NCBI RefSeq assembly: GCF_013167455.1
Contig: NZ_CP038328.1
Reading direction: 5' to 3' (one strand)
Origin: Escherichia coli O157:H7
GTDB lineage: Bacteria > Pseudomonadota > Gammaproteobacteria > Enterobacterales > Enterobacteriaceae
DNA length: 64,000 nucleotides
The notes beneath the pieces were generated by a model. It saw nothing but the letters and a program-made list of their open reading frames with translations, was not told where the DNA came from and ran no database searches. A program made the translations under genes and the position numbers. This document shows, piece by piece, positions 1 to 28,967 of the stretch; within the stretch, counting starts at the first letter, position 1, and each line of letters starts with the position of its first letter.

Positions 1-249
1 TGCTGAAGCCCCTACCCGGTTGAGCGAGTTAAAGGCGCGCATCGGTGAACCAAGATGGAGCATAGAGGCGATAAAGCCAATGCCCATCAGCACCCATAAG
101 CCAAACATGCAGGCGATAACACGCTGCTGGGCTTCTGCTCGCAGGTCGCCTTTAAGCAGCGCCAAAGCCAGAACGATAAAACCACCCGCCACACATTGCC
201 CGAAGACCGTGAAGATCATCAGCGGCCATTCATGCCATCCACTTCCCAT
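1..249 (-). CDS. dmsC: DMSO reductase membrane anchor subunit DmsC, N-terminal 83 codons (3' end lies beyond window start)
   Basis: Reverse-strand translation of 1..249 reads MGSGWHEWPLMIFTVFGQCVAGGFIVLALALL..., hydrophobic, starting 2 nt after the dmsB stop; matches recalled DmsC N-terminus and operon order dmsABC. Confidence 0.85.
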   Translation of the reverse strand, partial: MGSGWHEWPLMIFTVFGQCVAGGFIVLALALLKGDLRAEAQQRVIACMFGLWVLMGIGFIASMLHLGSPMRAFNSLNRVGASA

Positions 250-250
250 C

Positions 251-868
251 TCACACCTCCTTCGGGTTTGCCAGATAGCCAGTGGTATCCCCGGTCGGGC
301 GGCTATTGGCATTGGGTTTGATCACAATATTCGGTTTGGTAAAGTGAGCTCGCGGCAACGGCGCAACGGCCGCCAGATCGCCATGTTTTTTACGCAGCTC
401 GTCGATAGGGCCGAAATCCAGCGCCCGCAGCGGACAAGATTCAACACAGATCGGCTTTTTACCCTCCGCAACACGGTCATAACAACCATCGCATTTGGTC
501 ATATGGCCTTTCGTTTCGTTATATTGCGGTGCGCCATACGGGCAAGCCATATGGCAGTAGCGGCAGCCAATGCACACATCTTCATCGACCACAACAAAAC
601 CATCTTCACGTTTATGCATCGCACCGCTCGGGCAGACTTTAGTACAAGCCGGATCTTCGCAGTGGTTGCACGAAATCGACAGATAGTAGGCAAACACGTT
701 CTGGTGCCAGACACCGTTATCTTCCTGCCAGTCGCCACCAGCATATTCATAAATGCGGCGGAAGCTGACTTCTGGCATCAAATCTTTGTAGTCTTTACAA
801 GCCAGCTCGCAGGTTTTGCAACCGGTGCAACGGCTGGAATCAATAAAAAATCCATACTGGGTTGTCAT
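251..868 (-). CDS. dmsB: DMSO reductase iron-sulfur subunit DmsB
   Basis: 205-aa ORF with four Cys clusters (CTGCKTCELAC, CNHCEDPACTKVCP, CIGCRYCHMACP, CDGCYDR...CVESCP) typical of 4Fe-4S ferredoxin subunits; immediately downstream of dmsA. Confidence 0.93.
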   Translation of the reverse strand: MTTQYGFFIDSSRCTGCKTCELACKDYKDLMPEVSFRRIYEYAGGDWQEDNGVWHQNVFAYYLSISCNHCEDPACTKVCPSGAMHKREDGFVVVDEDVCIGCRYCHMACPYGAPQYNETKGHMTKCDGCYDRVAEGKKPICVESCPLRALDFGPIDELRKKHGDLAAVAPLPRAHFTKPNIVIKPNANSRPTGDTTGYLANPKEV

Positions 869-878
869 CGGTTACTCC

Positions 879-3323
879 TTACACCTTTTCAACCTGAACA
901 AGGTTTGTATGTGACGGATTCCCCTTAGCGAGAGGAGACGGACGTTGAGTGGTCAGTACGTTAATACAACCACCCTTATCGACACGTTTTGCATCCGGGT
1001 CATACCAGGCACCTTCACCCAGTGCGACCACACCCGGCATCATTCGTGGCGTCACTTTCGCCTCAATATGAACCTCACCACGATCGTTAAAGATCCTGAC
1101 TTTATCGCCGTTGTGGATACCGCGTTTTTGGGCATCAAGCGGGTTGATCCACATTTCCTGACGGCAAGCCGCTTTCAGCACATCAACGTTGCCGTAAGTT
1201 GAGTGAACGCGAGATTTATAGTGGAAACCTGTAAGCTGCAGCGGATACTGTTTGTTCAGCGGATCCTGATAACTTTCAAAGCCCGGCGTGTAGATCGGCA
1301 GTGGATCGATCACATCGCCTTCTGGCAATTCCCAGGTAGCGGCAATGTCAGCCAGCGCCTGCGAATAAATCTCAATTTTACCCGATGGCGTGGTCAGTGG
1401 ATTTGCCTGCGGATCTTCACGGAAGGCTTTATAAGCAACGTGATGCCCTTGTGGGTCGCGCTTTTTAAAGATCCCCTGCTTGCGGAACTCTTCAAACGTT
1501 GGCAGTTCAGGAATCGCTTCCCGCGACTGGGCATACAGATGCCGCATCCACTCTTCCTGGGTACGGCCTTCAGTAAACTGTTGCTCAACGCCAAGACGTT
1601 TTGCCAGTTCGCTGGTCATTTCATAGATGGTCTTACATTCAAAGCGCGGTTTAATCACCTGATCGTTGAAAATCACGTAAGACATATTCCCGCAGGATGC
1701 ATCCAGTGCAAAGTCCATCTGTTCGGAAGCGGTGCAGTCAGGCAGCAGGATGTCAGCATATTTCGCCGATGAGGTCATGTGGCAGTCGATAACCACAATC
1801 AGCTCGCACTTCTTATCATCCTGAAGGATTTCATGGGTACGGTTGATTTCAGAATGCTGGTTAATCAGGCAGTTACCGGCATAGTTCCAGATCATTTTGA
1901 TCGGCACATCCAGCTTATCTTTCCCGCGCACACCATCACGTAGCGCCGTCATTTCCGGGCCACGTTCAATGGCATCGGTCCACATAAACATCGAAATGCT
2001 GGTCTGGATCGGGTTTTCCAAGGTCGGCATACGGACAAACGGTAAACTGTATGAACCTTCACGCGCGCCGCTGTTCCCTCCATTAATACCAACGTTACCG
2101 GTCAGAATCGCCAGCATCGAGATAGCACGGGTTGCGATTTCACCGTTAGCGTGACGCTGCGGGCCCCATCCCTGGCTGATAAACGCCGGTTTGGTACTGC
2201 CGATTTCACGAGCCAGTTTGATGATTTTGTCTGCCGGAACACCGGTGATTTGCGAGGCCCATTCCGGTGTTTTAGCCACGCCATCTGGCCCTTCACCCAG
2301 AATATAAGCTTTATAGTGGCCATTTTTCGGCGCACTGGCTGGCAGGGTTTTCTCATCGTAGCCAACGCAATATTTATCGAGGAATGCCTGATCCACCAGG
2401 TTTTCAGTGATCATGACGTACGCCAGACCGTTAACCAGTGCGGCATCTGTTCCCGGACGAATAGGGATCCACTCATCTTCGCGCCCGGCACCGGTGTCGG
2501 TATAGCGCGGATCGATGATGATCATGCGGGCATTAGATTTCTGGCGTGCCTGTTCAAGATAGTAAGTCACCCCACCGCCACTCATTCGCGTTTCGCCAGG
2601 GTTATTACCAAACAGCACTACCAGCTTACTGTTTTCGATATCCGACGGGCTGTTGCCATCTGCCCAGCCGCCGTAGGTATAGTTCAGACCTTCCGCAATT
2701 TGCGCGGAGGAGTAGTCGCCGTAATGGTTCAGATAGCCGCCGCAGCAGTTCATCAGCCGCGCGACCAGGGTATTTCCCGGCGGCCAGGAGCGGGTCATGG
2801 TGCCACCCAGCGTACCGGTGCCATAGTTCAGATAGATGGATTCGTTGCCGTACTCTTTGATCAGGCGCTGCATATTGGTCGCGATGATGTCGTAGGCTTC
2901 TTCCCAGCTAATGCGCTCGAATTTGCCTTCACCGCGCGCCCCGACTCGTTTCATCGGATATTTCAGGCGGTCCGGATTGTAGACACGGCGACGCATGGAA
3001 CGCCCACGCAGGCAGGCGCGAACCTGGTGCAGGCCGTCGTAATTGTCATCGCCGGTATTGTCCGTTTCGACATATTTGATTTCACCGTCCACGACGTGCA
3101 TACGTAGCGGGCAGCGACTACCACAGTTAACTGTACAGGCGCTCCAGATAACCTTTTCGCCTGATTTTGTTGGAATGGCGCTATCGACAGCGTGCGCAAT
3201 CCGACTAAAAGGTAATGTTAATGCGCTGCTGGCCATTGCCAGGCCGCCGATCGCTGTCGTTTTTACCAAACCACGGCGACTCACCTCAGCAGCCAATACC
3301 GCATCAGGGATTTTCGTTTTCAT
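879..3323 (-). CDS. dmsA: DMSO reductase catalytic molybdopterin subunit DmsA
   Basis: 814-aa ORF; N-terminal twin-arginine motif SRRGLVK; N-terminal Cys cluster CTVNCGSRCPLR; length matches recalled DmsA. Confidence 0.93.
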   Translation of the reverse strand: MKTKIPDAVLAAEVSRRGLVKTTAIGGLAMASSALTLPFSRIAHAVDSAIPTKSGEKVIWSACTVNCGSRCPLRMHVVDGEIKYVETDNTGDDNYDGLHQVRACLRGRSMRRRVYNPDRLKYPMKRVGARGEGKFERISWEEAYDIIATNMQRLIKEYGNESIYLNYGTGTLGGTMTRSWPPGNTLVARLMNCCGGYLNHYGDYSSAQIAEGLNYTYGGWADGNSPSDIENSKLVVLFGNNPGETRMSGGGVTYYLEQARQKSNARMIIIDPRYTDTGAGREDEWIPIRPGTDAALVNGLAYVMITENLVDQAFLDKYCVGYDEKTLPASAPKNGHYKAYILGEGPDGVAKTPEWASQITGVPADKIIKLAREIGSTKPAFISQGWGPQRHANGEIATRAISMLAILTGNVGINGGNSGAREGSYSLPFVRMPTLENPIQTSISMFMWTDAIERGPEMTALRDGVRGKDKLDVPIKMIWNYAGNCLINQHSEINRTHEILQDDKKCELIVVIDCHMTSSAKYADILLPDCTASEQMDFALDASCGNMSYVIFNDQVIKPRFECKTIYEMTSELAKRLGVEQQFTEGRTQEEWMRHLYAQSREAIPELPTFEEFRKQGIFKKRDPQGHHVAYKAFREDPQANPLTTPSGKIEIYSQALADIAATWELPEGDVIDPLPIYTPGFESYQDPLNKQYPLQLTGFHYKSRVHSTYGNVDVLKAACRQEMWINPLDAQKRGIHNGDKVRIFNDRGEVHIEAKVTPRMMPGVVALGEGAWYDPDAKRVDKGGCINVLTTQRPSPLAKGNPSHTNLVQVEKV

Positions 3324-3493
3324 AATGGCTCACTCAAGCTTGCTCACGATTGATTCCAGTAACAAACCGTATTGTGTAATTATTTCTATAGCAGATCGCT
3401 ATATAGGCTTGTATACATCGAATAATTTGAAAATCAAAGAGATAGGTAGATTTTCACTCGAAAGTAGTATTACGTGTAAGTGAGGAGTAATTA

Positions 3494-3507
3494 TTGTTCG
3501 GTATCAA
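3494..3507 (-). promoter_or_regulatory. Candidate FNR box (TTGATACCGAACAA on minus strand) in dmsA upstream region
   Basis: Minus-strand sequence TTGATACCGAACAA fits TTGAT-N4-ATCAA at 8 of 10 half-site positions; dmsABC is known to be FNR-activated; exact position relative to the transcription start not verified. Confidence 0.45.
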
Positions 3508-3513
3508 AGGGAG

Positions 3514-3542
3514 ACAAAAAAAGCGCCCGTAGGCGCTTTTTA
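3514..3542 (-). terminator. Intrinsic terminator downstream of serS (A-run / GC hairpin / T-run, potentially bidirectional)
   Basis: aaaaaaaGCGCCcgtaGGCGCttttt; perfect GC stem flanked by A-run and T-run, 20 nt past the serS stop. Confidence 0.6.
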
Positions 3543-3561
3543 GATTCAGAAAAATTGGGTA

Positions 3562-4875
<1,314 letters not shown>

Positions 4876-4944
4876 TTAAATGGGAGATGTGGCCACAGCC
4901 TGCGACCACAGGGATACAGTAACAACATTACCGCAACGATAACA

Positions 4945-6288
4945 TTAACGGTAGCGTTTTATGGGGCTATTTTGATCCTGTTCAGCCAGCCAGGCGAGCT
5001 TTTCGCCAATCTTGCCTTCAAGGCCCCTGTTTGTCGGGAAATAATAGCGTGTTTGTGCTATTTCCGGCGGGAAGTAAACCTCACCGGCAGCATAAGCGTT
5101 TGCTTCATCATGAGCGTAACGATATTCCTGCCCGTAGCCCATTTCCTTCATTAATTTCGTCGGCGCATTACGCAAATGAACCGGCACGTCATAATCCGGG
5201 CGTTCGCGAGCATCGGCCAGCGCGGCTTTAAACGCAGTGTAGACAGCGTTGCTTTTTGGCGCGCAGGCCAGGTAAACAATCGCCTGAGCAATGGCGCGTT
5301 CACCTTCCGCCGGGCCAACGCGAGTAAAGCAATCCCAGGCCGCAATTGCCACCTGCATCGCCCGTGGATCGGCATTACCGACGTCTTCAGACGCAATCGC
5401 CAGACAGCGACGCGCGACATATAACGGATCGCCACCAGCGGTAATAATTCGCGCATACCAGTACAGCGCCGCATCGGGTGCGCTACCACGTACCGACTTA
5501 TGCAGTGCGGAAATCAGATCGTAAAAGCGATCGCCTTTGTTATCAAAGCGGGCGCTACGTTCACCGGCGATTTCGGTCAGTAATTCAGGCTTCAGGACCC
5601 GCTTACCGCTATCATCGACTTCGGCCATATCCGCCATCATTTCCAGCGTATTTAACGCCCGGCGCGCGTCGCCATTCACCAGTTCTGCAATGGCACGTCG
5701 TGTTTCATCTGGCAGAACAATATCCTGACCACCATAGCCACGGGTTTTGTCTTCCATCGCCTGAGTTAGTACTTGCTCAATATCCTCTGTACTCAGGGAT
5801 TTCAACAGATAAACACGGGCACGGGAAAGCAGTGCCGAATTAAGCTCAAACGACGGGTTTTCAGTGGTTGCGCCAATAAAAGTGATGGTGCCGTCTTCAA
5901 TATGTGGCAGAAATGCATCCTGCTGGCTTTTGTTGAAACGGTGAACTTCGTCAACAAAAAGAATAGTGCGGCGACCTGCATTGCGGTTTTGCCGGGCGCG
6001 CTCGATCGCCTCGCGAATCTCTTTCACACCAGAGGTGACGGCAGAAATACGTTCCACATCAGCGTTCGCATAGCGGGCAATCACTTCAGCGAGGGTTGTT
6101 TTGCCGGTACCCGGTGGCCCCCAGAGGATCATAGAATGTAAATGCCCGGCTTCGATAGCGCGCGGCAACGGCTTCCCCGCAGCCAGCAAATGTTGCTGAC
6201 CGATATACTGTGCTAAATTTTCTGGCCGCATACGCGCGGCCAGAGGTTGAAAAGTATTATCCGAAAAATCGAGCGACAGATTGCTCAC
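4945..6288 (-). CDS. rarA: Replication-associated recombination protein A (AAA+ ATPase RarA/MgsA)
   Basis: 447-aa ORF; Walker [10 protein letters not shown]; Walker [11 protein letters not shown]; position between lolA and serS. Confidence 0.93.
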
Positions 6289-6298
6289 TCAGGTGCCT

Positions 6299-6910
6299 CT
6301 ACTTACGTTGATCATCTACCGTGACGCCTTGCGGCGGGGTGAAGGTAAATTTCGCTGCATCCACAGCCCCATTTTGCTGGGATTTCAGTTGATAACTGCT
6401 GCGCTGATCGTCCTGCTCCACCGCGCTAAACTGATGGATTGTGCCATCACGTCCCACGTTAATGGTGAACTGCTTCAGATTGCCATTGCTGGCTTTCGGC
6501 GTCAGGACAAAGTCATCGCCATTCTGTTTGATATTGTACTGCTGCCAGTCGCTGGACTGGTTGCGGGCAATCAGCATAAACGGCGTATTACCGGTGGCAT
6601 CTTTCAGCCAGGTTGCCGTAGCTTGCTCAACGAACGGGTTATAGAACCACAGTGTTTTACCGTCAGAAACCAGAATGCTTTCATCAGGTTGTGTCATATG
6701 CCAGTTGAATAAGTTTGGACGTTTCACCCACAGATCGCCCTGACCTTCCTGCACCGCCGCGCCGCTACCGTCAGTCACTTTTTGTGTGAAGCTGGCGTGG
6801 AAGCTGCTGACTTTATCCAGGCGGCTTTTCAGATCGCTTGCGGCATCAGCCCAAACGCTGCTTGCTACTAAGCTTGAGAGTAATGCACAGGTGATGGCAA
6901 TTTTTTTCAT
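6299..6910 (-). CDS. lolA: Outer-membrane lipoprotein carrier protein LolA
   Basis: [25 protein letters not shown]... with signal peptide; start set at the second Met to give the recalled 203-aa product; the upstream Met at 6913 is also possible. Confidence 0.92.
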
Positions 6911-7022
6911 CATTATTCCTCAAATTACGTCACTCCCGATCGGGAGTTCCCTCTACTCTCTATTCCAGGCTAATAATCAGCTTGAGGAAAGAAGAAAATA
7001 CTGAATTTTCAGTTGATAGAGT

Positions 7023-7054
7023 GCCGGATGCGACGCTACCGCGCCTTATCCGGC
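7023..7054. repeat. REP (repetitive extragenic palindromic) element between ftsK and lolA
   Basis: gccggatgcgacgctaccgcgccttatccggc resembles the canonical E. coli REP (GCCGGATGCGGCG...CGCCTTATCCGGCCTAC). Confidence 0.7.
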
Positions 7055-7064
7055 AATGCATTAA

Positions 7065-10000
7065 TTAGTCAAACGGCGGTGGGGACAGCACTTCACGATT
7101 ACCGTTGTGCCCCTGTTCGCTGACAATCCCCTGCGCTTCCATCTGTTCGATAATACGCGCTGCACGGTTATAACCAATGCGGAACTGACGTTGTACGCCA
7201 GAAATTGACGCTTTGCGTTTTTCAGTGACAAACTGCACCGCCTGATCGAACAACGGATCCAGTTCTTCAGCGCCATCGAAACCACCCGCACCACCTTCGC
7301 TTTCGCTGTCGGAGGTGATGCCATCAACATACTGTGGGCGACCACGCGCTTTCCAGTCCTGCACCACGGCATGAACTTCCTGATCGCGAACAAAAGCACC
7401 ATGGACACGTACCGGCAACGTGGAGTTCGGCCCAGAGTAGAGCATATCCCCCATACCCAGCAGTGATTCCGCGCCAGCCTGATCAAGAATGGTACGTGAG
7501 TCAATCTTACTGGATACGGTAAAGGCGATACGGGTCGGAATATTCGCTTTAATCAGACCAGTAATAACATCAACCGATGGACGCTGAGTTGCCAGTACGA
7601 GGTGGATACCCGCGGCACGGGCTTTTTGCGCCAGACGTGCTATCAGCTCTTCCACTTTTTTACCTACTGTCATCATCAGGTCGGCAAATTCGTCCACCAA
7701 CACCACAATGTATGGTTCTTTTTTCAGCACCGGATGCTGGGCATCCATACTGTCACCCGGCTTCCAGTACGGGTCTGGAATCGGACGCATCATGCGATCG
7801 GCTTCAGCAATTTTTTCGTTATAACCCGCCAGATTACGCACACCCAGCGCAGACATCAGTTTATAACGACGCTCCATCTCGTTAACACACCAGCGCAGCG
7901 CGTTGGCGGCATCTTTCATATCAGTAACGACTTCCGTTAACAGGTGCGGAATGCCTTCATACACCGAAAGCTCCAGCATTTTCGGGTCGATCATGATGAA
8001 ACGCACATCTTCTGGCTGTGCTTTATAAAGCATGCTCAGGATCATCGCGTTCACACCGACAGATTTACCGGAACCGGTAGTCCCCGCAACTAACAAGTGC
8101 GGCATTTTCGCCAGATCGGCAACCACCGGCTCACCGGCGATATCTTTACCCAGCACCACGGTTAATGGCGATGGATTATCGCGGAATTTGGCGTTATCCA
8201 ATACTTCGCGCAGATAAACGGTTTGTCGTTTTTTATTCGGTAACTCCAGACCTACATAGGGTTTGCCAGGAATAACTTCAACGACACGCACCGCCACCGT
8301 CGAAAGTGAACGGGCAAGGTCCCGTGACAAGTTAGAAATGCGCGCCGCTTTTACGCCCGGTGCCAGGTTAAGTTCAAAGCGAGTGATAACCGGCCCCGGA
8401 GAGTAATTGACGACATCGGCTTTAATACGGAAATCAGCCAGACGCGCTTCCACCAGGCGAGCCATTTGTTCAAGCGCAAAGGTATCTACCGGCTCCACTT
8501 CGCTCGGCGGCGGTGTCAGCAAATCCAGAGAAGGCAGCGGCGTCGTCGGTTTATGCAACGGACGGCTGTCGCCATTACGCATCAACAGCGGATGAAGCAG
8601 AGTATCCTGCGGCTGTGGCGCAACTGGCTGTTGTGGCTGCTGATACTGCGGCTGCGGTGCAACCGGTTGTTGCGGCTGTTGATACTGCGGCTGCGGCGCA
8701 ACTGGTTGTTGCGGCTGCTGATATTGCTGCTGTGGCGCAACCGGTTGTTGCGGCTGCTGATATTGTGGCTGCGGCGCAACCTGCTGTTGTGGCTGCTGAT
8801 ACTGCGGCTGTGGCGCAACCGGCTGTTGTGGCTGCTGATACTGCTGCTGCGGTGCAACCGGTTGTTGCGGCTGCTGTACAGGTTCAACAATTGGCGTAAA
8901 CAGCGGTTCGTGTGGACCATCATCCAGCAACGCTTTCATTGGCGAAAATTCAAAATCATCCAGCGAGAACGGATTCGCCCCAGCCGGTTGTTCGCCGGAA
9001 TAACGTTGTTGTTGAGTTTGCGCAAACTGACGAGCCAGTTCAGCCTCTGCCGCAGCATCTGCATCTTCTGCATTTACGGGCACATCATGTTGATACTGTT
9101 CGCCATAGCGTTGCTGCTGTGTCTGGGCGAACTGACGTGCCAGTTCATCCTGCTGCATCGCATCGATTTCATCATCGTTGTACTGATCGCCAGAATCGTA
9201 CTGATTGCGCTGGGCTTCACGGGCTTTTTCTTCCGCCGCACGCTGTGAGGGCAGCTTAATACCGTAAGACGCCAATTCACGACGAGTTGGCACGCGGATA
9301 CGTTTCGGTCGTGGCAACTGCGGGCCAATCCCCTCTTTGACCTGCGGACGCGGTCCACCGCTATTTGCCAGACTGAAGACTGGCGCGGCAACGGTTGCGG
9401 CAGCCCCCGTCGCCAGTGTCGCTTTTTTCACGCCAGATGCCAGCGGAGAAACAGCGGCAGCGGCTTCTACTGGAGGTACTGCTGCAACAGAAGGTGCTTT
9501 CAGCGAAGATTTGATCGGTTCTGGTTCTTTAACCGGTTCTGGAATCGGTTGATACCAGGCCGCAAGTTGTTCACGTTCACGGGCTCGCTTCTCTTCAACT
9601 TCTTCAAAGTAGTAAAGCGGCGGACGCGCGGGTTTTGTCTCTTCTACAACGGGTTCAGGCTCCACAACAGGCTGCTGTTCAACGGGTTGCGGCTGTTGGT
9701 ACAACGGCTCCTGAGCGGCTGGCTGCTGATAAGTTTGCTCAGTCTGGTATGTAGACTGTGGAGCAAAAGTGGATTGCTGCTCTTCGGCTTGCCAGGCGTT
9801 ACCTGCCACCGGTTGTTCTGGCGCAGGGGCATAATACGGCTGTTGCGCAGGTTGTTCAGCTGCAGGTGCATAATACGGCTGCTGCGGCTGTACTGGTTGT
9901 TGCAGCGGCTCATTATATTGCACTGCAGGCTGCGCATATTGTGACTGCTGTGGGTAACCTTCCGGTGCAGGAGCAATAACCGGCTCTCCCGTTTGTGGAC

Positions 10001-11093
10001 CCGGTACAGGCTGCCAGGCTACTGTAGGTTGCGAAGGTGGAACATCAACAGAGGCAACAGGCGGCGTCTGAGTCACAGGTTCAACCGGCGCAGCCCAGCT
10101 TTGTGTCGCCGTGGTAGCAGCAGCTGCTACAGCGACAGGTTCGGTAATTGGCGCACCGTTTAATAATGGATCGTATTCGTCATATTCTGGCTGCGTTGCA
10201 CGATTGCCCGAAAATAGGACGTCGTCCGGGTCGGCAGCCACACCGCGTGCAGTGTAGGTAATCTCTTCGTCATCATCCATCCGCTTACCGGAGAACAACG
10301 CAGCGTCTGTTTGCCGCCCCATCGGATTAATGAATTTTTCCGCCAACCGTTTACGACGCGCTAGCGCGCCGCGAAGAATACGGGCACGGCGTGATTCATG
10401 CTGTTTGCCGTGGTTTTCATCTTCATACTCTTCGTCGTCTTCATACTCATCTTCATCGACCCAGGTATCATCGCGACGGGTACGATTACTGGCGAAGGTG
10501 AGAATGTTTAAAATCCAGCCGCCGAGTTTTTCAGCAATGGTCACCCATGACCAACCGGTGAACAACGTCAGGCCCGCTGCCCAAACGCAGAGCAGCGCAA
10601 TAGTTCCCCCGCTACTGTGTAGCAGTGGTTGTAGCGTAGTGCTTAGTAAGCTGCCAATGACGCCACCGGAGGCAAAATACCAGATATCGTCAGCGTTGAT
10701 TGCCGCCAGACCACAGGAGGTAAGGATGAGCGCCAAAACGCCAATGATGCGTAGCGAAACGGCAAAATAATCAATGTTTTCGTCGCTGGACTGATGACGC
10801 CAGGCAAACCAACAACCGCCGACAATAATGACGGGAATGGTGTAAGCCATCACGCCAAAAATAAAGAACAGCGTATCTGCCAACCACGCACCGGGCATCC
10901 CACCTAAATTATGGATAGGTTCATGCCAGGCCGTTTGCGACCAGCTGGGGTCCGAAGGGTTAAAGCTTAGTAAGGCAGCCATCAACCAGACGGCAAACAG
11001 GACAATAAGGATCAGCAACGCCTCCAGAAGGCGGCGGCCGCTACTTAACTTTGTCAATGTGACTTCTTTGTCTTCAGTGTATTCCTGGCTCAA
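7065..11093 (-). CDS. ftsK: DNA translocase FtsK
   Basis: 1342-aa ORF; N-terminal membrane domain, long Pro/Gln-rich linker, C-terminal motor with Walker A GTTGSGKS; the recalled K-12 protein is 1329 aa, a difference of exactly one 13-aa linker repeat. Confidence 0.95.
8607..8877. repeat. 39-bp tandem repeat (about 6.9 units) within ftsK encoding the PQQPVAPQ(P/Q)QYQQ linker repeats
   Basis: Unit boundaries read directly at 8607, 8646, 8685, 8724, 8763, 8802, 8841; units differ by a few substitutions. Confidence 0.9.
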
Positions 11094-11171: not shown

Positions 11172-11187
11172 CTGTATGGATTAACAG
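11172..11187. promoter_or_regulatory. LexA (SOS) box CTGT-N8-ACAG upstream of ftsK
   Basis: CTGTATGGATTAACAG fits CTGT-N8-ACAG; ftsK was originally described as the damage-inducible gene dinH; site lies about 80-95 nt upstream of the ftsK start. Confidence 0.6.
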
Positions 11188-25198: not shown

Positions 25199-26191
25199 AT
25201 GGTGAAATCGACGTCATGTACAACCATTGATTTCATGAATATGTCGCAGCTAACCGAACGGACCTTTACGTCATCTGAATCTCTCAGCAGCCTGTCACTT
25301 TTTCTTAGTCTGGCACGTGGACAGTGTCGGCCGGGTAAATTCTGGCATCGCCGTAGTTTTCGCCAGAAATTTTTGCTGCGCTCGTTGATTATGCCGCGTT
25401 TAAGCGTTGAGTGGATGAACGAACTTTCCCACTGGCCTAATCTCAATGTATTGTTAACGCGCCAGCCGCGACTGCCTGTGCGTCTGCATCGCCCTTACCT
25501 TGCGGCGAATCTTAGCCGTAAGCAATTGCTGGAGGCGTTACGTTACCATTATGCGTTACTCCGTGGATGTATGTCGGCGGAAGAATTCAGCTTATATTTG
25601 AATACCCCCGGGCTGCAACTGGCGAAGCTGGAAGGCAAAAACGGCGAGCAGTTCACGCTTGAGCTGACCATGATGATCTCAATGGATAAAGAAGGTGACA
25701 GCACAATCCTGTTCCGCAACAGCGAAGGTATTCCTCTGGCAGAAATCACGTTTACCCTGTGTGAATATCAGGGGAAAAGAACGATGTTTATTGGTGGACT
25801 GCAAGGCGCAAAATGGGAAATTCCACATCAGGAAATCCAGAATGCGACGAAAGCCTGCCACGGGCTATTTCCCAAACGCCTCGTGATGGAAGCGGCCTGT
25901 CTGTTTGCCCAACGTTTGCAGGTAGAGCAGATTATTGCCGTCAGCAATGAAACGCATATTTACCGCAGCCTGCGTTATCGCGATAAAGAAGGCAAGATCC
26001 ATGCCGATTACAACGCTTTCTGGGAATCGGTTGGCGGCGTATGTGATGCTGAACGCCATTACCGCCTTCCAGCACAGATAGCACGAAAAGAGATTGCCGA
26101 AATCGCCAGTAAAAAACGGGCTGAATACCGTCGGCGCTATGAGATGCTCGACGCTATTCAGCCACAAATGGCCACGATGTTTCGCGGTTAA
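25199..26191 (+). CDS. ybjX: VirK-like protein YbjX (DUF535)
   Basis: 330-aa ORF divergent from macA; length matches recalled YbjX; true start could be at a downstream Met. Confidence 0.8.
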   Translation: MVKSTSCTTIDFMNMSQLTERTFTSSESLSSLSLFLSLARGQCRPGKFWHRRSFRQKFLLRSLIMPRLSVEWMNELSHWPNLNVLLTRQPRLPVRLHRPYLAANLSRKQLLEALRYHYALLRGCMSAEEFSLYLNTPGLQLAKLEGKNGEQFTLELTMMISMDKEGDSTILFRNSEGIPLAEITFTLCEYQGKRTMFIGGLQGAKWEIPHQEIQNATKACHGLFPKRLVMEAACLFAQRLQVEQIIAVSNETHIYRSLRYRDKEGKIHADYNAFWESVGGVCDAERHYRLPAQIARKEIAEIASKKRAEYRRRYEMLDAIQPQMATMFRG

Positions 26192-27846
26192 TCCGCGCGA
26201 CCGCGCGCCAGCCACAGCACGCGTGAGAACATTTTTTTCAGCAGCGTCGGTACGGAGTCCACACCACGACGTCCGGCCTCCATTGCCACTTCAATGGCAA
26301 GATCGGGTTTGGAAGAGCGATGGATCGCTTTCGAGATAATTTTGCGCAGATTCATCGGGACATTTTCCGGGATTTGCGCCACGCGGTGGAACACATCGGA
26401 AAATCCCTGGCGATACATAAAATGTTCCATATCCAGCGCCGGTAACGCCGTTAAATGTTCTCGTTCGGCTTCCCGATCATTATTCAACAGGCTGCGTACC
26501 GTAGCGGCATATTTCTTCCCTGCTTCATCGCCATCGACCAGTACATGCCATTCAATCCCCATTCGGCGGGCAAATTTAACCAGTGGCTTTAGCCCGGACT
26601 GGGCAAACTCAATGACCTTGATCCCTTCGGCATCAAAATGATGTCCGCACTGACGCGCCAGTTCATTGATAACCCAGGTTTCCGTTTCCCCTTCCACCAG
26701 CAACCAGCAGCGAGCAAACAGCGATGACGGACGATTAAAACGAATGTGAAAAGAGATGCGGCGGCTGTCTTCGGTGCTCAAGCCACTTGGCCCCAGACGC
26801 CAGGCGGCAACACGAGAAGATTCACGCACCAGGCGGCAAACATGTTCCACTGGAGTTAACGAAAGCAGCTCGCCAGAGTTGGTGGTAGCAATACGTTGTA
26901 AAGGCAAAAGATTCAACAGATGCCAGGCAACTGAAAGCATAATGGGGTGTAAACGCGTTTCTGGATCTTCGATCAGCAACAATGGACGGGCGTCTTTATC
27001 CAGTCGCAATGTGCCTTTTGCCTGCAATAAAGTAGCAAACAGGCCGAGCAAAATAACCCGATACGAGCGCCCTCCAGGTCGGTCAATCATCCGGTTGATG
27101 ATGTCCAGATAGCGCCAGCTTCGTTGCTCATTGCTGGCCCGCCGCCGCATTAAACGATATCGCGCCTGTCCAGCCCCCTGCTCAGAGAAATAATGCTCAA
27201 GCAACTGCACCATTGCGGAAAGTCCCTGACGAATCTGTCCATCAGAGAGATTTTGCGGATGTGAGGACAACTCACGGGCGAGGAAATCGAGCTGGCGCGC
27301 GGTGACTTCCACATTGGGGACATTTGGCACCGTGCCGTTACGAATACGGCGCATAAAACGGGCATCACGCAAGCGCAGCACCGGCATTAAACGCACCAGA
27401 TGGTGTGCCTGATCGTTAATATCCTCAACATCAATCGGATGTCCGTCTTTATCGAGAAAACTGCGCAGTGTCATCACGCTGCCGTCTTCCGCACTCTCCC
27501 CTTCCAGACGATAAAAAATACGGTGATAGCCATCGGTGCATGGCGTCCAGCACGCTTCCAGCGGCCGATAACGGCGAACCCGATGTCGACCTGGCAGCGA
27601 TTCGCGGAAGGTCAAAATAATATGCAGATGATGTTCTCGCCCGTTGATATCTCCCGGCGGGAACCAGAAATCGTCGCGCTCAAAATGGTAGAGATCTGAT
27701 TCTGGCGATAGCAGCAGGGTTAAGGCGTCCAGCAAGCTGGATTTACCCCACGCGTTCTCCCCAATCAGGACGTTGTTTTGTTCCAGCATCAACGACAAAC
27801 GGTTGATACCGCGAAAACCCACAATTTCAACGCGCTCAAGAATCAT
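26188..27846 (-). CDS. ybjD: OLD-family (AAA ATPase + Toprim) protein YbjD
   Basis: 552-aa ORF; N-terminal Walker A GENAWGKSSLLDAL; C-terminal Toprim-like motifs LLVEGETE and VLVDGDEAG. Confidence 0.88.
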   Translation of the reverse strand: MILERVEIVGFRGINRLSLMLEQNNVLIGENAWGKSSLLDALTLLLSPESDLYHFERDDFWFPPGDINGREHHLHIILTFRESLPGRHRVRRYRPLEACWTPCTDGYHRIFYRLEGESAEDGSVMTLRSFLDKDGHPIDVEDINDQAHHLVRLMPVLRLRDARFMRRIRNGTVPNVPNVEVTARQLDFLARELSSHPQNLSDGQIRQGLSAMVQLLEHYFSEQGAGQARYRLMRRRASNEQRSWRYLDIINRMIDRPGGRSYRVILLGLFATLLQAKGTLRLDKDARPLLLIEDPETRLHPIMLSVAWHLLNLLPLQRIATTNSGELLSLTPVEHVCRLVRESSRVAAWRLGPSGLSTEDSRRISFHIRFNRPSSLFARCWLLVEGETETWVINELARQCGHHFDAEGIKVIEFAQSGLKPLVKFARRMGIEWHVLVDGDEAGKKYAATVRSLLNNDREAEREHLTALPALDMEHFMYRQGFSDVFHRVAQIPENVPMNLRKIISKAIHRSSKPDLAIEVAMEAGRRGVDSVPTLLKKMFSRVLWLARGRAD

Positions 27847-28271
27847 ATCCCCTCCAGAAATATGTGACTTATCCTTTACGCTGGCAGTATAACGGGAAAG
27901 GCCTTGCTAATACGTGATGACATCACATTTAAGCATGGCAAATGTCTGAAAAATGAGCGAATAATCGCGTTATACTCCCTCTTGCTGATAAGTCTGCAAA
28001 AACAACAAAATCAAATAATTAGCATGATAAATTATTTTTTATTACGCCTAAAGGATTAAATCTTTTGCTTGCACTACACTGTCAATCAGACAAATGACTA
28101 TATGGGGCAACCCGCTGTTGCCCTAAATCAAATTTACTGGATTTATTTATCTGGTGAATGACTCGCCTTCGTTTTTAAAATAGCCGCGCATTATTTCCGT
28201 CGTCACTTTTTTACGACGACCCTATAAAACGACCATATTTTTCACAGGGTCAATTTTTAATTGAGGTGGAT

Positions 28272-28967
28272 ATGTTCAGAAAATTAGCAGCTGAATGTTT
28301 TGGTACTTTCTGGCTTGTTTTTGGTGGCTGTGGTAGTGCTGTACTGGCCGCAGGCTTCCCGGAATTAGGCATTGGTTTTGCCGGCGTGGCGTTGGCGTTC
28401 GGTCTGACCGTTCTGACGATGGCCTTTGCTGTTGGTCATATTTCTGGTGGTCATTTTAACCCGGCGGTCACTATTGGTTTATGGGCTGGCGGACGTTTTC
28501 CGGCAAAAGAAGTCGTTGGCTACGTAATTGCCCAGGTTGTCGGCGGTATTGTTGCGGCAGCGCTGCTGTATTTAATTGCCAGTGGTAAAACGGGTTTTGA
28601 CGCGGCAGCCAGCGGTTTTGCTTCTAACGGTTATGGCGAGCATTCACCAGGCGGTTATTCCATGCTTTCCGCGCTGGTAGTTGAACTGGTATTGAGTGCG
28701 GGCTTCCTGTTAGTGATCCACGGTGCAACCGACAAATTCGCTCCGGCAGGTTTTGCGCCGATCGCTATTGGTCTGGCCTTAACCCTGATTCACTTAATCA
28801 GTATTCCGGTGACTAACACTTCTGTTAACCCGGCGCGCAGCACCGCGGTTGCCATCTTCCAGGGCGGCTGGGCATTAGAACAACTGTGGTTCTTCTGGGT
28901 GGTGCCAATTGTCGGTGGCATTATCGGTGGTCTGATTTACCGGACTCTGCTGGAAAAGCGTAATTAA
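28272..28967 (+). CDS. aqpZ: Aquaporin Z
   Basis: 231-aa product [21 protein letters not shown]...; two NPA motifs (HFNPAV and VNPARS). Confidence 0.95.

Follow-up and report, generated by a model that had tools for sequence, protein, structure and literature searches.

YbjD of Escherichia coli O157:H7: a stand-alone chromosomal OLD-family protein with a modelled catalytic region of the Class 2 type

The analysed window is a stretch of 64,000 nucleotides of Escherichia coli O157:H7 (contig NZ_CP038328.1), in which ybjD occupies positions 26188..27846 of the minus strand. According to the list of open reading frames, it encodes 552 amino acids followed by a stop codon; the start codon is ATG and a ribosome-binding site (GGAGGGG, 27849..27855, minus strand) can be read 6 nt upstream of it. 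The designation of this CDS as an OLD-family ATPase-nuclease relies on the reading frame, on its identity to annotated ybjD (100% at the DNA level with the copy of E. coli O157:H7 PV15-279) and on the Pfam matches given below; database records annotate the E. coli copies as "ATP-dependent endonuclease". The ybjX gene (25199..26191, plus strand) is convergent with ybjD, the stop codons of both lying in a TTAA palindrome (26188..26191), and the pair has been listed as a convergent excludon (PMC12288877). On the other side, aqpZ (28272..28967, plus strand) is divergent from ybjD, and the AT-rich region between them (27847..28271, GC 0.40) is the presumed promoter site. No strong sigma-70 consensus match was found in this region, and promoter and terminator consensus scans near ybjD gave no score beyond shuffled expectation. 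Regulation of ybjD by the SOS response was rejected, as no LexA box was found upstream of the gene. Neither the window ORFs nor the orthologous loci place a helicase, a reverse transcriptase or another candidate partner next to ybjD, and no Rfam family, structured RNA or retron RNA was found between 25000 and 29500. The position assigned to the gene in the preliminary description, between ybjX and aqpZ and without a partner gene, is borne out by these neighbours; the locus is syntenic in 80 Enterobacterales species.

YbjD matches Pfam DUF2813 over residues 1-375 (E=2.9e-160, 534 bits, cutoff 21) and OLD-like_TOPRIM (PF20469) over residues 376-440 (E=3.8e-16, 59.8 bits, cutoff 23.2). Given these scores, the motifs from which a single-gene OLD-like protein had been proposed, namely an N-terminal ABC-type P-loop (GENAWGKSSLLDAL, residues 29-42) and the C-terminal Toprim motifs LLVEGETE (residues 382-389) and VLVDGDEAG (residues 435-443), are not due to chance, and that proposal is supported. 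The OLD-family reading is thus right but already known. YbjD was reportedly listed in the original Toprim paper of 1998; in 2019, it served as a seed for the definition of the OLD classes and was assigned to Class 1.

The N-terminal ABC (Rad50/SMC/RecF-like) ATPase region covers residues 1-355, helical insert included (26782..27846, minus strand, as for all features below), and contains a Walker A, a Walker B, a D-loop and an H-loop. Conservation was examined among 112 representatives of the family. In the Walker A motif (GENAWGKS, residues 29-36, 27739..27762), G29 and E30 are invariant and K35 is kept in 98 of the 112, with Arg in 10. The Walker B and D-loop segment (LLLIEDPETRLHP, residues 289-301, 26944..26982) carries E293 (99/112), D294 and H300 (110/112), and the spacing of +7 between E293 and H300 is that of E276 and H283 in Thermus scotoductus (Ts) OLD. 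The H-loop (TTNS, residues 321-324, 26875..26886) has Asn323 where a His is canonical, this position being N in 68, H in 19, Q in 13 and Y in 9 representatives; a His/Asn exchange at the H-loop has been noted in Class 1 OLDs (PMC7049728). With this Asn and with no clear signature motif, the ABC site of YbjD is degenerate. The structure model shows four helices inserted in the ATPase domain (residues 180-195, 202-225, 238-255 and 259-277; the loops have a lower pLDDT), and we delimit the insertion to residues ~160-280 (27007..27369) as the equivalent of the OLD dimerisation domain. Indeed, the dimerisation domain of Ts OLD also consists of four helices inserted into the ATPase (PMC7049728), and YbjD probably dimerises through this insert as well. 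By structure comparison, the ATPase head resembles SMC, Rad50, RecF and RecN.

The Toprim core (residues 378-467, 26446..26715), delimited from PF20469 and the model, has modelled strands at residues 380-384, 409-413, 432-437 and 465-467, and an Insert-3-type helix (458-464) located between alpha3 and beta4. Its EGETE motif (E385, E387, E389; 26680..26694) is predicted to supply the metal A Glu and the first metal B ligand; E385 and E387 are present in all 112 representatives and E389 in 111, and the motif corresponds to E400/E404 of Burkholderia pseudomallei (Bp) OLD and to E377/D381 of Ts OLD. The DxD motif D438-G439-D440 (26527..26535; 110/112 and 112/112 for the two Asp) would also bind metal A. 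The Toprim core is followed, in the model, by a Class 2 type C-terminal helical domain (residues 468-552, 26191..26445; helices 473-490, 500-510, 513-527 and 534-548). There, D472-M-E474 (26425..26433; D472 107/112, E474 111/112) provides predicted metal B ligands, which share their position in the motif order with T506/E508 of Bp OLD and S478/E480 of Ts OLD. K513 (26308..26310), in an S-K-P sequence (K513 111/112, P514 112/112), is the predicted catalytic Lys: it opens a helix 39 residues past E474, K562 of Bp OLD lying 54 past E508, and G481 (E474+7, the catalytic position of Class 1) is an invariant Gly. Alignments by phmmer and profiles with solved OLD structures end at or before the DxD, and the likely equivalence of K513 with K562 is based on the fold match and on invariance. 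From sequence and fold, the essentially invariant E389, D472, E474 and K513 occur in the order expected for a two-metal site, in a fold that matches Bp OLD. Throughout the 112 representatives, the nuclease residues are more strictly kept than the ATPase motifs.

The whole model aligns with Ts OLD and GajA over 372-412 residues, and its Toprim fold matches OLD C-terminal regions. The comparison with Class 1 and Class 2 OLDs, suggested at the outset as a check, separates the two: the model restricted to the C-terminal part fits the Class 2 regions of Bp and Xcc from end to end with a TM of 0.67-0.69, versus 0.37 for Ts OLD. In Class 1, which includes phage P2 Old, Ts OLD (6P74) and Vibrio cholerae (Vc) OLD, the archetypes Ts OLD and P2 Old are marked structurally by the lack of a C-terminal helical domain and Insert-3 helix and by a catalytic Arg/Lys at +7 from the metal B Glu (PMC7049728), as seen in Ts OLD; YbjD has instead the helix, the helical domain, a Gly at +7 and a Lys in the helical domain. 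We therefore conclude that its catalytic region, as modelled, is of the Class 2 (GajA/Bp OLD) type and not of the Thermus Class 1 type. The gene is isolated, with no UvrD-like helicase, retron or AriA-type partner, so that the "Class 1" label fits its context only. Conversely, the partner expected for Class 2, a GajB/UvrD-like helicase, is missing from the window and from the 80 orthologous loci. As for the other classes, ybjD has no nearby reverse-transcriptase ORF or retron RNA, in contrast to the Class 3 OLD of Retron Eco8, and PARIS (Class 4) has its ATPase (AriA) and Toprim (AriB, DUF4435) in two genes, whereas YbjD is a single fused protein whose match to the AriA model is limited to residues 1-51. 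OLD proteins have been sorted by gene neighbourhood, with structure assumed to follow, and YbjD breaks this correspondence.

Among the closest known systems are Class 2 and the Gabija protein GajA (B. cereus GajA 8SM3/8U7I; Bp OLD C-terminal region 6NK8; Xanthomonas 6NJV/6NJW). With B. cereus GajA, however, YbjD shares only 12-17% identity; it also differs by its H-loop Asn instead of His, by the lack of a helicase partner, and because ybjD is part of the vertically transmitted core genome, not of an island. The closest relatives of YbjD in the defence database are GajA proteins, and the best PADLOC model on YbjD, PDLC00094, represents a genuine GajA subfamily, as it matches a real GajA adjoining a GajB. 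PADLOC "GajA" names alone were rejected as proof of Gabija membership, because PADLOC requires the partner gene before it calls a system. The DUF2813 family does contain a genuine GajA-GajB clade, in which a GajB helicase adjoins the members L089 and P0264. No GajB/UvrD-like helicase was found beside nine distant solo relatives of YbjD, and distant members adjoin pyrG-eno, a peptidase gene with DinB_2 or an RNase J-like beta-CASP gene, and not defence islands. R362 is conserved solely in the non-Gabija members. The giant relatives (1000-1900 aa) are not OLD-helicase fusions, Pfam finding only insertions and unannotated tails and no helicase domain.

These data bear on the idea that YbjD is an orphaned GajA, left functionless or decaying after the loss of GajB from a former Gabija system, which its Class 2-type catalytic region, its best PADLOC model and the missing helicase might suggest. 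In the neighbour-joining tree, which is effectively unrooted and poorly resolved, the Gabija clade is however a minor branch surrounded by solo members, and the YbjD clade does not descend from it. Moreover, 5424 of the 5426 complete E. coli genomes carry ybjD with its frame intact (99.96%; 95-100% identity) and its dN/dS is 0.02-0.06 (rough in the more distant comparisons, where dS is saturated); together with the invariant active site, these values rule out decay, and we consider a relic very improbable.

The flanking genes change across the 80 species while ybjD is kept, and it has no obligate neighbour. Within Enterobacterales, ybjD belongs to the core genome, is passed on vertically and is strongly constrained by purifying selection. 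Plasmid carriage was rejected for the high-identity matches: the records concerned are megabase-sized or chromosome fragments and also carry ybjX, which identifies them as mislabelled chromosome. Likewise, the one viral contig with a near-identical copy is host chromosome from the edge of a provirus, and P2 old gives a weak, partial match (28%, residues 252-440 only); ybjD is effectively absent from phages. P2 Old is phage-borne, unlike the chromosomal YbjD, and its toxicity is RecBC-dependent whereas that of YbjD is RecBC-independent (PMC13261556).

A paper of May 2026 tested YbjD and proposed the name oldB (PMC13261556). Induced expression reduced plaquing by Bas18 and Bas20 and gave smaller plaques with Bas64-68, K35A was more toxic, and none of the phenotypes observed required the Toprim domain or its acidic residues (PMC13261556). 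With these plaque effects and its GajA relatives, in a Pfam family that holds true Gabija pairs, YbjD could be an anti-phage defence protein. Yet chromosomal deletion had no effect on any of the 68 BASEL phages screened, the anti-phage effects depend on a plasmid and on induction and occur near toxic levels (PMC13261556), and they do not need the Toprim domain, the active site of which is nonetheless invariant. As a rule, known defence genes are patchily distributed and lie on islands, whereas ybjD is nearly universal in E. coli, syntenic, constrained and, among high-identity matches, found neither on phages nor on true plasmids. We thus regard a defence role as less likely than not.

Alternatively, YbjD may be a housekeeping nuclease for genome maintenance (repair, recombination, replication or chromosome processing), the phage and toxic effects being side-effects of an overexpressed DNA-binding Rad50/SMC-like head. 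Conservation and context speak more for such a role in housekeeping or surveillance than for a typical mobile defence gene: the gene is core, syntenic and strongly constrained, the distant members have the neighbours described above, and the head resembles that of SMC, Rad50, RecF and RecN. Two related proteins point the same way. The archaeal OLD Cran1 is reported to act in cell-cycle progression rather than in defence (PMC12796447); as there described, it is, like YbjD, a conserved chromosomal OLD-family protein with an apparently non-antiviral role, but it is archaeal, essential and of a separate class, whereas YbjD is bacterial and non-essential. A Salmonella old homologue is said to matter under temperature stress, in a screen cited by Schiltz 2019. 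Against this, ybjD is listed among the completely uncharacterised, non-essential genes of E. coli (PMC13261556), its upstream region lacks a LexA box, and neither a repair nor another housekeeping phenotype is reported in the literature searched. A repair role drawn from two lesion-tolerance papers was rejected, as ybjD is mentioned there merely as adjacent to an insertion site: the aqpZ-ybjD intergenic region served other authors as a neutral insertion site (PMC9203016). A housekeeping nuclease is thus a serious possibility, to which we give somewhat less than even credence.

Considering all these elements, we hold the following picture, taken as a whole, to be probable: YbjD is a stand-alone, chromosomally fixed OLD member, for which we propose an ATP-gated two-metal mechanism. 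A homo-oligomer would form via the helical insert, and ATP bound to the degenerate ABC site would keep the enzyme inactive, as nucleotides do for GajA. Upon loss of nucleotide binding or some trigger, the ATPase/dimerisation module would engage its target, a step that could alone account for the overexpression toxicity and the weak anti-phage effect. The Toprim and helical domains would subsequently cleave nucleic acid in a two-metal reaction, with metal A held by E385, D438 and D440, metal B by E389, D472 and E474, and K513 assisting; since this site is invariant, the cutting step is presumably needed for the native role. The dispensability of the Toprim domain, the neutral deletion and the lack of a housekeeping phenotype in the literature searched count against this proposal; its gating step is borrowed by analogy from GajA, whereas Vc OLD and P2 Old need ATPase activity, and the literature searched reports neither ATPase nor nuclease activity for YbjD. 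The mismatch between phenotypes that are Toprim-independent and a Toprim active site more strictly conserved than any other part of YbjD suggests that the real function of the protein is as yet unobserved, which makes YbjD a target among the genes of E. coli, about 15% of the total, without a known role. More tentatively, and with a chance that we judge to be low, YbjD/DUF2813 could be a vertical, housekeeping-type branch of OLDs with a GajA (Class 2) catalytic module, whose native role in surveillance or genome maintenance needs the nuclease site. If so, the PDLC00094 Gabija proteins and YbjD would be direct relatives, and a core gene of bacteria would share a recent common origin with a defence system that is widespread.

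The gene ybjD (26188..27846, minus strand) encodes a protein of 552 aa from an ATG start with GGAGG ahead of it, and its DNA is 100% identical to ybjD from an E. coli O157:H7 genome. Residues 1-375 match Pfam DUF2813 (E 2.9e-160) and residues 376-440 match OLD-like_TOPRIM (E 3.8e-16), both far over the curated cutoffs, and the three motifs quoted in the preliminary description (P-loop, LLVEGETE and VLVDGDEAG) were all found in the translation. We consider the identity of YbjD and its architecture, an OLD-family ATPase with a Toprim domain, as secure; the original observation is confirmed and its interpretation supported. E. coli YbjD served as the query with which Schiltz et al. 2019 (PMC6755086) gathered 837 OLD homologues, and they assigned it to Class 1 ('single, isolated genes'). 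The published experiments of Atahualpa et al. (PMC13261556), who put forward the new name oldB, are close to those which the preliminary description had proposed, and the finding as first written is therefore already known. The new points are modest: a Class 2-type catalytic region, a family shared with a real Gabija clade, and a quantified core-gene behaviour.

ybjD had been described as a lone gene without partner at a conserved core locus, and this holds across Enterobacterales. It is present at 95-100% identity in 5424 of the 5426 complete E. coli genomes, annotated as 'ATP-dependent endonuclease' and adjoining ybjX. When 1.84 billion representative proteins were searched exhaustively with HMMER, 334 clusters were obtained at E<=1e-30. 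In a separate data set with one genome per species, the best 80 loci are all from Enterobacterales, from 99% identity in Escherichia down to 66-68% in Serratia, Pectobacterium and Brenneria, with the common gene order hcp-ybjE-(aqpZ)-ybjD-(ybjX)-macAB. Since ybjX (25199-26191, +) and aqpZ (28272..28967, +) occur in only 57 and 56 of these loci, against 80/80 for ybjD, neither is an obligate partner. Solo genes were also seen for all nine of the distant representatives (28-45% identity); where the contig is long enough, they lie beside housekeeping genes (for example pyrG-eno, 5'-nucleotidase, PTS genes, copCD, peptidase with DinB_2, beta-CASP RNase). The family also includes giant DUF2813/OLD relatives of 1000-1900 aa (P0152, P0163, P0165, P0166 and P0175), in which big insertions, perhaps coiled coils, interrupt the ATPase head and the C-terminus extends into a long tail without Pfam match; Pfam detected no helicase domain in these five.

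Structure comparison with OLD nucleases and GajA agreed with the proposed architecture. The AlphaFold model, built from 48 family representatives (mean pLDDT 86.2, pTM 0.85), matched GajA (E 1.3e-18), Thermus scotoductus (Ts) OLD (7e-17) and retron Eco8 OLD (6e-14) in a Foldseek search of the PDB. It predicts an ABC head, a four-helix insert (180-277) placed where Ts OLD carries its dimerisation domain, the expected C-terminal Toprim core and four C-terminal helices. In the Class 1 archetype, neither an Insert-3 helix nor a helical domain at the C-terminus is present, and the catalytic basic residue lies seven positions after the metal B Glu (Ts E480/R487, P2 E543/K550), whereas the Class 2 Burkholderia pseudomallei (Bp) OLD has both elements and takes K562 from the helical domain, 54 positions after E508 (PMC7049728). 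In YbjD, the position seven residues after E474 is Gly481 (Gly in 111/112 family representatives). Its conserved basic residue, K513, belongs to an S-K-P motif (111-112/112) where a C-terminal helix begins, and a helix is predicted at 458-464 between alpha3 and beta4. YbjD is thus Class 1 by context with a Class 2-type catalytic region, a mismatch of which we found no mention in the literature examined. As sequence alignments to solved OLD structures end at the DxD motif, we infer, from its conservation and the matching fold, that K513 is the equivalent of Bp K562.

The nuclease residues are nearly invariant among the 112 representatives (E385, E387 and D440 in 112; E389, E474 and K513 in 111; D438 in 110; D472 in 107), whereas the ATPase motifs are less strict (K35 in 98, with Arg in 10; E293 in 99). 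Within Enterobacteriaceae, dN/dS against seven species ranges from 0.017 (E. albertii) to 0.064, dS being saturated in more distant comparisons; these values are similar to those of macB, aqpZ, ybjE and hcp and well under those of ybjX (0.07-0.24). A decaying Gabija relic is an unlikely description of YbjD. The family does contain Gabija members. A DUF2813 protein (206 bits; 31% identity to YbjD along its whole length), found in the viral-contig scan at locus L089, is followed with a 4-bp overlap by a UvrD-like helicase gene, and PADLOC matched the first to its GajA model PDLC00094 from end to end (757 bits) and the second to its GajB model PDLC00114 (882 bits). PDLC00094 is also the best PADLOC model for YbjD (267 bits vs 84 bits for the Old model). 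The island also encodes a HEPN_Swt1 and DUF499 protein (PADLOC HmaC, 1115 bits) and, on the opposite strand, an Eco57I/MmeI-type methyltransferase; positions 1-10203 of this contig (IMG/VR UViG_3300021604_000070) form a compact defence island. Another representative, P0264, shares 57% identity with the L089 GajA, and downstream of it lies a GajB fragment with 65% identity. In a neighbour-joining tree of the 112 members, these two Gabija members form a small clade amid solo members, distinct from the YbjD clade, which contains the solo P0126, P0133 and P0158; given its star-like shape and rooting only at the midpoint, no direction of evolution was read from this tree. The H-loop position (YbjD 323) is N in 68, H in 19, Q in 13 and Y in 9 representatives, and R362 is Arg in 108/112, whereas both Gabija-context members carry His, the canonical residue, in the H-loop and either Leu or Gln at position 362. 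Judging from sequence, H-loop Asn and R362 could be markers of helicase-independent function.

Arabinose-induced YbjD reduces plaquing of Bas18 and Bas20 and gives smaller plaques with Bas64-68; the effect is lost on deletion of the ATPase domain, unchanged by Toprim deletion or acidic-residue mutation, and retained in K35A with higher toxicity, and YbjD, unlike P2 Old, does not kill recBC(ts) cells (PMC13261556). The dispensability of a Toprim domain whose active site is near-perfectly conserved in a strongly constrained core gene suggests that these overexpression phenotypes differ from the native function. We favour a nucleotide-gated OLD enzyme, in which ATP bound at the degenerate ABC site would keep the enzyme off, in parallel with GajA; the head and dimerisation module would engage the target, which would be enough for the overexpression effects, and, in its native role, the enzyme would then cleave by a two-metal mechanism at the invariant Toprim and helical-domain site. 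The higher toxicity of K35A would follow from loss of the ATP-held off state. For this native role, low-level surveillance of foreign DNA and genome maintenance seem to us about equally likely.

Among phage genomes, the sole match to YbjD was P2 old, weak and partial (28% over residues 252-440), and only two of 2.9 million viral contigs encode a relative, one being host chromosome and the other the L089 Gabija island. Viral carriage was rejected for the former (L088, IMG/VR UViG_2534681697_000018), which carries an identical ybjD on host chromosome from aqpZ to ybjX, collinear with the window; its positions 1-3766 do not match the window and may represent an insertion or prophage boundary just past aqpZ. 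Plasmid carriage was likewise rejected, the high-identity plasmid matches being mislabelled chromosomal records.

The genes ybjX and ybjD converge, and their stop codons overlap in a TTAA palindrome (26188-26191), which therefore leaves no room for an intergenic terminator; the pair was reported as a convergent excludon in an RNA-seq survey (PMC12288877). The evolution of YbjX is much more rapid than that of any neighbour (46-74% aa identity to other Enterobacteriaceae genera vs 80-95%), and in Klebsiella, Raoultella and Pectobacterium the locus has no ybjX (set L004-L080). The divergent ybjD-aqpZ intergenic region (27847-28271) is AT-rich (GC ~0.40 vs ~0.52 in the flanks). Of the two top ChIP peaks recorded in Edwardsiella for EnrR, an anti-H-NS protein, one maps upstream of ybjD (PMC9023278), a hint of nucleoid-protein control. 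No LexA box was found upstream of ybjD, nor any Rfam family near it, and the scan for promoter and terminator signals gave nothing over expectation. Elsewhere in the window, a perfect LexA-box-like palindrome, CTGTATGGATTAACAG (11172-11187), lies ~80 bp upstream of a 1342-aa ORF (7065-11093, minus strand), which is probably ftsK; the palindrome would then belong to the SOS-regulated dinH promoter of that gene.
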